64,000 nucleotides of DNA, from sequence record MT782071.1, one strand, 5' to 3'. Every line of letters begins with the position of its first letter. The first letter of the stretch is position 1. Positions 4,147-45,588 of this stretch are shown piece by piece. The DNA comes from Escherichia phage JN02. The notes below the pieces were generated by a model, which had not been told where the DNA came from, did not search any database, and saw only the letters and a program-made list of their open reading frames with translations. Position numbers and translations under genes: made by a program.

Positions 4147-4152
4147 AATCTT

Positions 4153-4160
4153 TATAAATA
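4153..4160 (+). promoter_or_regulatory. late promoter TATAAATA (gene 24)
   Basis: exact TATAAATA 28 nt before gene 24 ATG. Confidence 0.7.
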
Positions 4161-4187: not shown

Positions 4188-5471
4188 ATGAGTAAAATCC
4201 AAAAATTATTGCGTGAATCTACAACGTCTACTAGCAACTCAATTGGTCGCCCAAATCTCGTTGCTTTGACTCGCGCTACGACTAAATTAATATATTCTGA
4301 CATTGTAGCAACACAAAGAACTAATCAGCCTGTTGCTGCTTTTTATGGTATCAAATATCTTAACCCAGATAACGAATTCACATTTAAAACTGGTGCTACT
4401 TATGCGGGTGAAGTTGGATATGTAGACCGAGAAAAAATTACTGAGCTCACAGAAGAATCAAAAGTCACACTAAATAAAGGCGATTTTTTCAAATATAATA
4501 ATATCGTCTATAAAGTGTTAGAAGATACACCATTTGCAGATATTCAAGAAAGTGATCTAGAATTAGCTCTTCAGATTGCAGTCGTTCATTTAAAGGTACG
4601 GTTATTTTCAGATGCAGCGGTAACAAGCAAATTTGAAAGCTCTGATAGCGAAATTTCTGATGCAAGATTCCAGATTAATAAATGGCAAACTTCAGTCAAA
4701 TCTCGTAAACTTAAAACTGGACTCACGGTTGAATTAGCGCAAGATTTGGAAGCGAATGGATTTGATGCCCCTAACTTCTTAGAAGATTTGCTTGCTACTG
4801 AAATGGCCGATGAAATTAATAAAGATATTCTTCAGTCTTTAATTACTGTATCGAAACGTTATAAAGTTACTGGAATTACTGACACCGGATTTATTGACTT
4901 GAGCTATGCATCCGCTCCAGAAGCAGGACGTTCATTATATCGAATGGTGTGTGAAATGGTATCACACATTCAAAAAGAGACAACTTATACTGCAACGTTT
5001 TGTGTAGCCTCAGCTCGTGCAGCTGCTATTCTTGCTGCTTCTGGTTGGTTAAAACATAAGCCAGAAGATGACAAGTATCTTTCACAAAATGCTTATGGAT
5101 TCTTGGCAAATGGATTACCTCTTTACTGTGATACCAACAGTCCGTTAGATTATGTTATTGTGGGTGTTGTAGAAAATATCGGCGAAAAAGAAATTGTAGG
5201 GTCCATCTTTTATGCTCCATACACTGAAGGAGTAGATTTAGATGACCCGGAACATGTTGGTGCATTTAAAGTTGTAGTTGATCCAGAAAGCTTGCAACCG
5301 TCTATCGGATTATTGGTTAGATATGCTTTATCAGCAAATCCTTACACAGTAGCAAAAGACGAAAAAGAAGCGAGAATAATTGATGGTGGGGACATGGATA
5401 AAATGGCAGGACGTTCAGACTTGTCTGTTTTACTCGGTGTTAAATTGCCTAAAATTATTATAGATGAATAA
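4188..5471 (+). CDS. 24: head vertex protein gp24
   Basis: 427 aa; matches T4 gp24; late promoter TATAAATA at 4153-4160. Confidence 0.95.
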   Translation: MSKIQKLLRESTTSTSNSIGRPNLVALTRATTKLIYSDIVATQRTNQPVAAFYGIKYLNPDNEFTFKTGATYAGEVGYVDREKITELTEESKVTLNKGDFFKYNNIVYKVLEDTPFADIQESDLELALQIAVVHLKVRLFSDAAVTSKFESSDSEISDARFQINKWQTSVKSRKLKTGLTVELAQDLEANGFDAPNFLEDLLATEMADEINKDILQSLITVSKRYKVTGITDTGFIDLSYASAPEAGRSLYRMVCEMVSHIQKETTYTATFCVASARAAAILAASGWLKHKPEDDKYLSQNAYGFLANGLPLYCDTNSPLDYVIVGVVENIGEKEIVGSIFYAPYTEGVDLDDPEHVGAFKVVVDPESLQPSIGLLVRYALSANPYTVAKDEKEARIIDGGDMDKMAGRSDLSVLLGVKLPKIIIDE

Positions 5472-12076: not shown

Positions 12077-12473
12077 ACACTCTATTGCTTGACGCTAGCT
12101 GAAGTTTAATTTGTTCAATATCGTCAGGGTTGTCTACGACCGAAAATCTAATCTCTACTATAACCGTATAGTCATCATATACTGGCGTTACACTCACAGA
12201 AAGTTTGTCGATGCGTGGCTCATAGTTACGAACAGCTGCCTGGATATTACGCTCAATCGTATCGGCTGTAAGTGGTGTCATGTTCTCGAAAAGTTCATCA
12301 ACCAAATCGCATCCAAATTCAGGGTCGAAGGGGCGTGAGCCTTTTCTAGTTGTCACTATGCCAAGAAGACTATTTTTAATAGAACGAAGTCCTACAGAAC
12401 GAGCAACGTCCTTGTTCCAATCCATACGCATTTCTGGGTCGATATCTGAATAAAGTTTATTGATATTAGACAT
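12075..12473 (-). CDS. 25: baseplate wedge protein gp25
   Basis: 132 aa; matches T4 gp25. Confidence 0.93.
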   Translation of the reverse strand: MSNINKLYSDIDPEMRMDWNKDVARSVGLRSIKNSLLGIVTTRKGSRPFDPEFGCDLVDELFENMTPLTADTIERNIQAAVRNYEPRIDKLSVSVTPVYDDYTVIVEIRFSVVDNPDDIEQIKLQLASSNRV

Positions 12474-13099
12474 TATAGTAACTCAAAGAATTCTTTGAGG
12501 CCTCGTATTGTGTGAACGTGTGACGCCCCACATTTGGGACATTTAATAGGGGTTGCCAGATAAATTGATGGCGATACTAAAAGATTTTTAATATTGATCA
12601 TGTCATCTTCTGTTATAAGGCCGTAAAGGTCGTTTATTTCTGCTTCAGTTAAATCTTCAACAGGGATGGACTCTCCATTGACAAAAACGGCCTCAATACA
12701 TGAAGCAATCATTAATGCGATATTTTTATCGTCAAATAATTTAGGTTGACGGAACTTAATTTTAATACCACTGAACGAATACCAGGGATCGGCCTGTTCA
12801 TCTAATTGAGTGTGCAATAAATTCATATAGACTTGAAATGAATGCCCACAGGAACAATTCCAGGTGTGTTCTTGATTCACTTCACCTAATGAATGTGCCC
12901 ACAGATTTACCAACAATAACTCGGCTTCTTGTTTAGTCAAGTTTTTAGCGTTAGAGCAATTAGTGATAATATTGTTCACTGCTGATTCAATAGTACCAGT
13001 AGCTCGCGCACCTATGAGTCCTAAATATTCTTTTAAAGTAAAGGCTCTACAATTCACTTCTTTATCGCCTAAACGTACGGTAAACGTATATTTGTACAT
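12473..13099 (-). CDS. 26: baseplate hub protein gp26
   Basis: 208 aa; T4 size and synteny; late promoter TATTTATA upstream. Confidence 0.88.
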   Translation of the reverse strand: MYKYTFTVRLGDKEVNCRAFTLKEYLGLIGARATGTIESAVNNIITNCSNAKNLTKQEAELLLVNLWAHSLGEVNQEHTWNCSCGHSFQVYMNLLHTQLDEQADPWYSFSGIKIKFRQPKLFDDKNIALMIASCIEAVFVNGESIPVEDLTEAEINDLYGLITEDDMINIKNLLVSPSIYLATPIKCPKCGASHVHTIRGLKEFFELL

Positions 13100-13117
13100 G
13101 TTAACTCCTTTATTGTG

Positions 13118-13125
13118 TATTTATA
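13118..13125 (-). promoter_or_regulatory. late promoter (gene 26, minus strand)
   Basis: TATTTATA on plus strand, 19 nt upstream of gene 26 start. Confidence 0.65.
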
Positions 13126-13129
13126 AATA
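13122..13129 (+). promoter_or_regulatory. late promoter TATAAATA (gene 51)
   Basis: exact TATAAATA 18 nt before gene 51 ATG; shares 4 nt with the gene 26 promoter. Confidence 0.65.
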
Positions 13130-13146
13130 ATAGAAAAGGAGTAATT

Positions 13147-13899
13147 ATGGCTAATATAATTCGTTGTAAATTACCGGATGGTGTTCATCGTTTTAAGCCG
13201 TTCACTGTGGCGGATTATAGAGACTTTTTACTAGTTAGAAATGATATCGAACATCGTTCGCCGCAAGAACAAAAAGAAATAATTGCCGATCTGATTGATG
13301 ATTATTTTGGCGAGTACCCTAAAACATGGCAACCATTTATATTCCTGCAAGTTTTTGCAGGCTCTATAGGCAAAACAAAAGTTCCTGTTATTTTCACTTG
13401 CCCTAAATGCTCTAAAGAAAAAACCGCACCATTTGAGATATATCAAAAAGAACTAGTCGAACCTGAACTTGATGTTGCTGGTATAAAAATACGTTTTTCT
13501 TTCCCTGAAAAGTTTTATGACAATAAAGCATTAATGATAAGTGAAAACATAAAAGAAATATATTATAATGATGAATGGTACCCATGGAATGATTTGACTG
13601 AAGAGAACCAAATCCAAGTAATAGAAGCAATAGACATTGACTCGCTCGAGAAGGTTATTGCTTCTATGAACCCTATTAATTTGACCCTTAGATTAGGTTG
13701 TTGTGAACGTCATGTTAAAACATATACTGATATCTTAGAGGTTTTTAAATTGTTAGTTAACCCTGATGAGATTTTTACATTCTATCAGATAAACCATTCA
13801 CTAGTAAAGAGTCAATACACATTGGATTCTATTATGCAAATGATTCCTGTTGAACGTGGTATTGCTTTAACATTAGTAGAAAAGGACCATAAAAAATGA
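13147..13899 (+). CDS. 51: baseplate hub assembly catalyst gp51
   Basis: 250 aa; T4 synteny; late promoter upstream. Confidence 0.88.
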
Positions 13900-27889: not shown

Positions 27890-28013
27890 TTTAAATTCTC
27901 AATTCGAGATAATATTTAGTAGCCACGTTCTTCTGAATTTCACCTTCTTTCGACAAGTCTCTCAGTTGTAGGCTACTGCTTAGAAGAGTGTTCTCTTCAT
28001 ATAGTTATTTATA

Positions 28014-43427: not shown

Positions 43428-44081
43428 TTAATACTTACATGATTTGATTGTTTCTATGAACAATTTCTTAGCAGCATTTCCATCGATTTGAAGTATTTTT
43501 CGATATGCCTTTAATTTGGTAGAATAATTTTGCCAGACTAAATTGTCAGTAAGTTCATCATGCTTATCTATAATATTCAAAAATGAGTCCAACAATAAGA
43601 AAGTCTCAAATGAAATTATATTGCTTTGTAGCAATTTGAATATGTAGCTCGACTGAACGTTGTTATTATAATCAAATATCTCTTGAAGCGCACTAACTTC
43701 AACTTTCTTACTGAAATAGTAGATGTTACGTACATCTTCAGCAAACGTCTCCTTGGCTTGTTTGAGACGTCCAATATATTCCCTATAGAAAACTAATGCA
43801 TCAGCGTCTGATATCTCACCAATCCATGCGTCTTGGTTAGCAACTAAGTTGCTTATGAATATCAAGGTGAGTTCCTTCAATTTATATTTCTCTGCTAGTT
43901 TTTCAAAGAAATATTTATCTCGGCGTTTTTGATACGCATTATCCGAAACACGCATGCACCAGTTATATTTGATTACGTCATACCGACCATTAAAATGTTG
44001 TTTGCACATCAAGTATAGTTTGTATACCGATTTTCCGTTAATATAACGTTCTCCATCAGGAGGCATGCGTATTTTAATCAT
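43428..44081 (-). CDS. 59: gp59 helicase loader
   Basis: 217 aa; T4 size and position. Confidence 0.85.
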   Translation of the reverse strand: MIKIRMPPDGERYINGKSVYKLYLMCKQHFNGRYDVIKYNWCMRVSDNAYQKRRDKYFFEKLAEKYKLKELTLIFISNLVANQDAWIGEISDADALVFYREYIGRLKQAKETFAEDVRNIYYFSKKVEVSALQEIFDYNNNVQSSYIFKLLQSNIISFETFLLLDSFLNIIDKHDELTDNLVWQNYSTKLKAYRKILQIDGNAAKKLFIETIKSCKY

Positions 44082-44416
44082 AATAAGAAATCTAACGTAT
44101 TAGTTTTTTCACCACGAGCAACTGATGGACGAAGCATGTTTTCGTCAATTGCTTCGCTTGTAATTTTTTCAACAATTCCGGTAGGAATAAATTTAGCAAA
44201 TTGTGTTTCTGGAATAGAATTTTCTTCCAAGAAAGCAGTTGTTGCTTCTAAATAAGACATACCAAATTGTTCAACCATGGATTCGATAATGAATCCATTT
44301 TCTTGTCGGTCAAGCAATTTAGCGATATCATCTTTATCGTGTTTTACTGCTAATTCTTGTTCAGATAAACCGGCCTCATCAACCGGTTTAATATCACTTA
44401 GTGAAAACTGTGTCAT
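44078..44416 (-). CDS. 33: gp33 late transcription co-activator
   Basis: 112 aa acidic; T4 size and position. Confidence 0.8.
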   Translation of the reverse strand: MTQFSLSDIKPVDEAGLSEQELAVKHDKDDIAKLLDRQENGFIIESMVEQFGMSYLEATTAFLEENSIPETQFAKFIPTGIVEKITSEAIDENMLRPSVARGEKTNTLDFLL

Positions 44417-44663
44417 AAAGCTCGACTACCTCTTCGTTTTCAGCTTCAAATTGGTCACGAGCGTCTTTATGATAAAGAGCTAACAAACGATTAAACATTT
44501 TTCCATCGACGCCAAGCTCTTCTTTAGCACGAGTACGAATGTCTTTAATCAGTTCATTATAACCAGAAATTTTAAGTTTGTTATCGGAAGCTTCCTTGAC
44601 TAGTTTAGCCAGTTCTTCACCATGCACATCTTGATTAAATTCAACTGCTTCTTTCTTAGCCAT
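44394..44663 (-). CDS. dsbA: DsbA dsDNA-binding protein
   Basis: 89 aa from second ATG, preceded by SD GAGGTAAAC; T4 size and position. Confidence 0.7.
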   Translation of the reverse strand: MAKKEAVEFNQDVHGEELAKLVKEASDNKLKISGYNELIKDIRTRAKEELGVDGKMFNRLLALYHKDARDQFEAENEEVVELYDTVFTK

Positions 44664-44670
44664 GTTTACC

Positions 44671-45588
44671 TCAGAATTCATTAATTACACTTGTTAATTT
44701 AGAAAGACCGGATTTTACAAAGTATGAATAAATCTTGCCTTTAGGTTGTGGTTTATATGAGTTATAATACTCTATAATGGTTGAAGCAATATTATCAGGG
44801 ATATAATCAAAATCAATGAGAACCAAATTTTCTTGATACCGTTTATATTCTTCAGCACTTAATAATACTTCAGCTTGAGAACGGTCGTTAGCAATTGCTT
44901 CAATAATTGATGTTTTCATGCTCGGAGTTCGTTCACCATCAACTCTGGTAAACCAGAAGTCGCCACGAACTCGAACAGATGCAACACCATCCTTACGGTC
45001 ACCTTTAAGAATTTTAGTCATGCAATCAATTTCGGCAGAACCGTTCTTAATTTTAACCCATTTTTTCTGTGGTGGTGACCACTGTTTAACGTTAGGATAT
45101 TTATGTAATTGTGTAAAGTCACCATCTGATGCAACAATACATACCTTATGTCCAGCTAATGACAAATATTTGGTTAATACACCGATATGGTCATCCGCTT
45201 CATACTTGTCAATATCCATTACAACGTATGGCATGTATTTCTTAATCTCATCAACAACTTGACGGAGTGCAGTAAAATATCCTTCCCAATCCCACTTTGA
45301 AGCTTCACGATCGGTTTTACGATTTTTCTTGTAATAGTAAGCAAAGTCACGTCGCCAATAACCTGAAGTAGCATTATCCATACACAATACAAATTTTGTA
45401 TAGCCTTGCTTACGGAACATCACTACGTTTTTACGAATTGAATTCAAGATTACATGGCGAACCATCGGAACAGTAATTTTATCGCCGTCTTCAAAGTTGT
45501 TTAATGCGGCTGCCAATGCAATGTTACTAAAGTCGGCAAGTGCAATACCTTCTTTGTAATCTTCATCCAACATCATTTCTAAATCCAT
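44671..45588 (-). CDS. rnh: RNase H (5'-3' exonuclease)
   Basis: 305 aa; T4 size and position; early promoter upstream. Confidence 0.9.
   Translation of the reverse strand: MDLEMMLDEDYKEGIALADFSNIALAAALNNFEDGDKITVPMVRHVILNSIRKNVVMFRKQGYTKFVLCMDNATSGYWRRDFAYYYKKNRKTDREASKWDWEGYFTALRQVVDEIKKYMPYVVMDIDKYEADDHIGVLTKYLSLAGHKVCIVASDGDFTQLHKYPNVKQWSPPQKKWVKIKNGSAEIDCMTKILKGDRKDGVASVRVRGDFWFTRVDGERTPSMKTSIIEAIANDRSQAEVLLSAEEYKRYQENLVLIDFDYIPDNIASTIIEYYNSYKPQPKGKIYSYFVKSGLSKLTSVINEF

Follow-up and report, generated by a model that had tools for sequence, protein, structure and literature searches.

We analyzed a 64,000-nt stretch of the Escherichia phage JN02 genome (MT782071.1; hereafter the window), which is at least 99% identical to Mosigvirus phages (RB69/JS09-like, Tevenvirinae). 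Two baseplate genes diverge from a short gap in this DNA. Gene 26, on the minus strand (12473–13099), encodes a 208-aa baseplate hub protein/chaperone (PHROG 150, PF12322, with matching RB69 and T4 annotations), and gene 51, on the plus strand (13147–13899), encodes a 250-aa baseplate hub assembly protein assigned to the same families (PHROG 150, PF12322). The two proteins are paralogues that share 25% identity (BLASTP, E = 2e-10). The neighborhood is arranged as in T4: uvsW, uvsY, and gene 25 flank the pair at one end, genes 27–29 at the other. Gene 25 lies downstream of gene 26, both on the minus strand, while genes 27–29, downstream of gene 51 on the plus strand, are probably co-transcribed with it. 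The gap between genes 26 and 51 is 47 bp long.

The T4 late promoter consensus is TATAAATA, positioned at –13 to –6 (PMC1524935). An exact motif scan of the window placed this box on both strands of the 26/51 gap, at 13122–13129 (+) and at 13125–13118 (–), with TATA (13122–13125) common to the two. Together, the overlapping boxes make up the 12-mer TATTTATAAATA (13118–13129). The original prediction had described a palindrome-like element here, flanked by genes 26 and 51, with TATAAATA on the plus strand for gene 51 and on the minus strand for gene 26 and with the central 4 nt in common. The exact scan agrees with this arrangement, and both gene names are corroborated by PHROG and Pfam as well as by the T4, RB69, and JS09 annotations. 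The description of the element can be sharpened: read directly from the window, the reverse complement of TATTTATAAATA is TATTTATAAATA itself, hence the palindrome is perfect over its 12 bp.

Each box lies 17–18 nt upstream of the start codon of a late gene, with a Shine-Dalgarno sequence in between. The plus-strand box (–13 to –6 relative to the predicted gene 51 start) is followed by ATAGAAAAGGAGTAATT and then by the ATG of the 250-aa ORF (13147–13899), and so ends 17 nt before that ATG; on the minus strand, CACAATAAAGGAGTTAAC separates the box (13118–13125) from the ATG of the 208-aa ORF (13099–12473), 18 nt away. By the –13 to –6 rule, late transcription of gene 51 is predicted to begin at the A at 13135, 6 nt past the box, which would make the leader about 12 nt long (AAAGGAGTAATT). 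Strictly applied to the minus strand, the same rule puts the gene 26 start at 13112, with A residues flanking it (13111–13113), for a predicted leader of about 12–14 nt. The Shine-Dalgarno sequences, AAGGAG in both cases, are at 13136–13141 (+) and 13105–13110 (–) and are kept in relatives. The 53 bp from start codon to start codon (13097–13149) are nearly mirror-symmetric: the outer arms, 13097–13111 and 13135–13149, are 80% complementary, about an axis that falls within half a base of that of the 12-mer. With its paralogous products and this nearly mirror-symmetric 53-bp unit, the whole locus (12473–13899) looks as though an old duplication in inverted orientation had taken place around a bidirectional promoter.

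We then considered how often such an element would be expected by chance. The window contains 15 exact TATAAATA 8-mers against 6.7 expected, a number reached in none of 100 shuffles, and about ten of the boxes precede the start of an ORF on their own strand by 17–30 nt. A+T makes up about 62% of the genome, and chance alone would supply about seven 8-mer matches per window, which lends some color to the idea that the palindrome is an AT-rich accident with no function. However, the full 12-mer is expected 0.03–0.05 times per 64 kb and about 2e-5 times in a 47-bp intergenic region, yet it is found precisely in the gap between two divergent late genes. The two boxes in the 12-mer are the only exact ones near gene 26 or gene 51. 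A scan allowing one mismatch around genes 25–29 gave no better alternative late promoter for either gene. Sigma-70 promoters were considered and rejected: the regional scan was at chance level (16 found, 14.5 expected), and the single match in the intergenic region would start transcription inside gene 51. Elsewhere in the window, 4149–4160 reads TCTTTATAAATA, one mismatch from the 12-mer, with a plus-strand box (4153–4160) 27 nt upstream of a 427-aa ORF (4188–5471). Since its minus-strand reading is imperfect, this site looks like an ordinary one-directional late promoter.

Conservation of the 12-mer was assessed in a pooled set of annotated phages and IMG/VR loci, using contexts 56 nt long. 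It is invariant at 12 of 12 positions across 53 loci, which comprise 26 distinct contexts from at least 10 genera. Over these 26 contexts the flanking positions are 30–70% conserved, the two Shine-Dalgarno sequences excepted. The identical 12-mer lies between genes 26 and 51 in T4, T2, and RB69. Among the annotated phages it is unchanged in Tequatrovirus, Mosigvirus, Karamvirus, Gelderlandvirus, and Gaprivervirus, and likewise in Kagamiyamavirus, Jiaodavirus, Zedzedvirus, Lazarusvirus, and Muldoonvirus. Of 46 gp51 loci sampled independently from IMG/VR, 39 have the 12-mer. The annotated phages with the 12-mer differ in intergenic length (45–67 bp), and their gp51 identity to that of the window falls to as little as 39–50%. 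A palindrome left invariant while the neighboring protein has diverged this far is not what chance would leave behind; the conservation data refute an accidental origin, to which we give practically no credence.

A more specific alternative is that a single promoter operates here, most plausibly the gene 51 box, with the box on the other strand arising as a by-product of an AT-rich, nearly self-complementary motif and gene 26 being expressed from elsewhere. A consensus match is by itself no proof of activity, and a review of T4 late transcription cautions that promoter activity in vivo is not proven for every consensus site (PMC2988020). Against this, the TATT at 13118–13121, which is private to the minus-strand box, shows no more variation across genera than the plus-strand box does, whereas the bases adjoining it vary among the 26 contexts. 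T4 late promoters have no conserved upstream element or –35 element (PMC2988020), and none is conserved at the 26/51 site either. The invariance of these four bases is thus evidence for selection on the minus-strand promoter. Consistent with this, TATT precedes none of the 13 other exact boxes in the window. The next exact minus-strand box upstream of gene 26 is at 28013, about 15 kb off; in T4 the gene is late in both RNA and protein (PMC9697503). Overall, the sequence comparison points to selection acting on both boxes, and we regard the single-promoter explanation as very unlikely.

Upon a closer inspection of other lineages, we noted several variants of the 26/51 junction. In Aeromonas T4-like phages, which we take to include 44RR, the junction carries a 10-bp perfect palindrome, TATTTAAATA, that provides TTTAAATA on both strands with a 6-nt overlap (372–381 in L014, 371–380 in L016, 872–881 in L057 and L059, and 871–880 in L062 of our locus set). 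The TATTTAAATA site of this junction does not appear in the published set of 44RR late promoters (Nolan et al., 2006; PMC1524935). In Pseudomonas phage PspYZU05, exact boxes are retained on both strands but are crossed and set 7 nt apart, as TATAAATA-ATACTAG-TATTTATA (L055, 864–886); this retention of an exact box on each strand also tells against a single promoter. Krischvirus phages (RB49-like) have a 13-mer, TATTTTATAAATA, in which a 1-nt insertion (an extra T) breaks the palindrome (L013, 365–377; L058, L060, and L061, 865–877). Their exact box is on the plus strand only, and the minus strand reads TATAAAATA. Krischvirus speaks for the single-promoter explanation: these phages lack a perfect minus-strand box at this junction, so that expression of gene 26 is possible without an exact overlapping box. 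We also noted an ACTAAATA 5 nt away from TATTTTATAAATA at the Krischvirus 26/51 site. Lastly, RB43-like phages of Klebsiella and Pectobacterium (L017 and L018) have neither the divergent 26/51 junction nor the palindromic promoter; there, a tail-tube or baseplate gene, gene 51, and gene 26 follow one another on the same strand.

These variants also bear on whether the palindrome mainly serves as an operator bound by a dimeric protein such as phage DsbA, with the promoter boxes being secondary. Perfect dyad symmetry is a common trait of sites bound by dimers, and DsbA, which is encoded in the window, has been reported to bind, with micromolar affinity, AT-rich sites that overlap two late promoters (PMC2988020). 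An operator should, however, keep its dyad independently of the boxes, and what is conserved among the variants is one box per strand rather than the dyad. The Aeromonas phages have a dyad of only 10 bp, PspYZU05 has crossed halves with 7 nt between them, and the 13-mer departs from the dyad again; the 10-bp and crossed forms keep a box on each strand, and the 13-mer an exact one on the plus strand alone. At the gene 4/48 junction of Aeh1, whose late consensus is CTAAATA (PMC1524935), a 14-bp perfect palindrome, TATTTAGCTAAATA (L066, 505–518), is rebuilt from that variant consensus. Moreover, two overlapping and constrained 8-mers fully account for the invariance of the 12-mer, and dsbA is non-essential (PMC2988020). 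Since most variants keep one box per strand but shift the register, two promoters are favored over one palindromic protein site, and we consider a primary operator function highly improbable.

Divergent late boxes recur at other junctions. The overlapping plus/minus pairs listed by Nolan et al. for RB49 and Aeh1 were considered as orthologues of the 26/51 pair and rejected: they lie at ORF247/gene 34 and at 4/48, respectively, outside the 26/51 junction, and are therefore analogues. TATTTTATAAATA occurs at two different divergent Krischvirus junctions, 26/51 and RB49 ORF247/gene 34 (L067, 499–511). As the Aeh1 TATTTAGCTAAATA site shows, late promoters that are palindromic and bidirectional occur again with another box. 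The RB69 gene 4/53 and Aeh1 gene 4/48 junctions resemble 26/51 in that the short gap separating two diverging late genes holds two late boxes, one per strand. Unlike 26/51, the RB69 4/53 boxes are crossed (TATAAATA-N7-TATTTATA; L068, 439–461), and the Aeh1 palindrome is 14 bp long and built on the variant consensus. Crossed boxes with the same 7-nt spacer, found in PspYZU05 and at RB69 4/53, constitute a second geometry of divergent late-promoter pairs at two unrelated junctions. With this spacing, the two predicted transcripts would overlap by 5 nt at their 5′ ends, and the leader of each would contain the box of the other.

The closest comparison is T4 itself, which has the same orthologous divergent genes and the identical TATTTATAAATA (L001, 3451–3462). 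Its intergenic region is 50 bp rather than 47 bp, its gene 26 box lies 21 nt rather than 18 nt from the ATG, and its gp51 is about 70–72% identical to that of the window. T4 genes 25, 26, 51, and 27–29 are all classed as late in RNA and protein (PMC9697503 supplements), and late transcripts of either polarity are known, with 32 of the 50 late-promoter sites listed for T4 being perfect (PMC2988020). In RB69, the intergenic sequence is identical to that of the window, and promoters in both orientations, Pl:118620(+) and Pl:118672(–), have been predicted, computationally as here (Nolan et al., 2006; PMC1524935, Additional file 5); the two promoters fall in the gap that separates the starts of gene 26 (118622) and gene 51 (118670). 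The T4 GenBank and RefSeq records have no promoter features annotated at 26/51. A phrase search of a limited literature set gave no match for divergent, bidirectional, or overlapping late promoters. Both divergent 26/51 transcripts of T4 were reportedly mapped by Scarlato et al. in 1989 (Virology 171:475), in a paper with the title phrase 'overlapping promoters direct divergent transcription of the base plate gene cluster'. Being described for T4 and predicted for RB69, the overlapping late-promoter pair at 26/51 is already known and is ordinary for T4-family genomes.

Collectively, an exact 8-bp box on each strand, adjoining late virion/assembly genes (26 and 51), agrees with what defines T4-type late promoters. 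We conclude with high confidence that the 12-mer is a compact bidirectional late promoter, formed by two gp55-type boxes that lie on opposite strands and overlap by 4 bp. The view that both boxes are working late promoters is supported by the sequence comparison, with the final step drawn from homology and from the transcripts that Scarlato et al. reportedly mapped in T4. The original prediction that two divergent late units would start from overlapping boxes is likewise supported by geometry, conservation, the RB69 predictions, and the late classes of the T4 genes.

The T4 late polymerase consists of the host core enzyme, the sigma-like gp55, and the co-activator gp33, tethered to the DNA-loaded gp45 clamp; it melts the DNA at TATAAATA, and RNA synthesis begins about 6 nt past the box. 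Of these factors, gp33 (PF16805) is encoded in the window, as is DsbA (PF11126); genes 55 and 45 presumably lie outside it, judging from T4 gene order. gp55 is conserved across the T4 family, and the RB69 clamp is 81% identical to the T4 clamp (PMC2988020). gp55 reads the non-template strand of the opened box, flipping –12, –9, and –8 (PMC7892883), and gp33 together with DNA-loaded gp45 activates transcription, the clamp sitting at the upstream end of a footprint that is 13 bp longer (PMC2988020). A polymerase bound in one orientation would start near 13135 and transcribe gene 51, beyond which genes 27–29 lie on that strand; bound the opposite way, it would start near 13112 and transcribe gene 26, with gene 25 downstream. 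The predicted starts are about 23 bp apart, and the two bubbles would begin (–12) at 13123 and 13124, each inside the opposite box, so that the two polymerase complexes would probably be mutually exclusive. Each polymerase and clamp complex would cover the opposite promoter.

The choice of direction may lie with the clamp. Its loading nick is required in the non-transcribed strand, and activation changes direction when the nick is moved to the opposite strand (PMC2988020). Because a clamp fires only promoters with the nick in the non-transcribed strand, clamps loaded on opposite strands should fire the 12-mer in opposite directions, and the direction chosen should follow clamp orientation. It is tempting to go further and to propose that the back-to-back register was itself selected as a mutually exclusive switch gated by clamp orientation, beyond a side effect of box overlap. 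On such a reading, whether a given firing goes to gene 26 or to gene 51 would depend on which strand gp45 is loaded on, and hence on the way the last replication fork travelled or on which strand was nicked. If true, the switch would couple and balance the output of the paralogous hub-assembly chaperones gp26 and gp51 (both PF12322). We think this unlikely. Each base of the 12-mer is part of one box or the other, and the central four are part of both; this overlap can by itself account for an element that stays unchanged from genus to genus.

A general precedent is given by sigma-70 promoters that are bidirectional through the symmetry of their –10 element (Warman et al., 2021; Warman et al., 2026, PMC12825309). 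There, too, a short pseudo-symmetric –10-type element serves both directions, one polymerase binding event blocks the other, and a start spacing of 23 bp is a common class (PMC12825309), comparable to the roughly 23 bp predicted here. By contrast, the 26/51 site is of the gp55 type, with an 8-bp box and no –35 element, and its activation would come from a DNA-tracking sliding clamp whose orientation sets the polarity. As a discovery the site has little value, being a textbook-type feature of the T4 family encountered again in an RB69-like phage. It is nonetheless a clean, natural, and minimal example of a bidirectional promoter, 12 bp long and with no upstream elements, in which the orientation of the activator would set polarity. 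Together, the 12-bp, 10-bp, 13-mer, crossed 7-nt, and Aeh1 14-bp forms offer a natural variant series for polymerase competition at clamp-activated promoters. Lastly, gene 33 (44078–44416) and dsbA (44394–44681), both on the minus strand, overlap by 23 nt in the window, which fits the conserved dsbA-33 translational coupling described in the review of T4 late transcription (PMC2988020).
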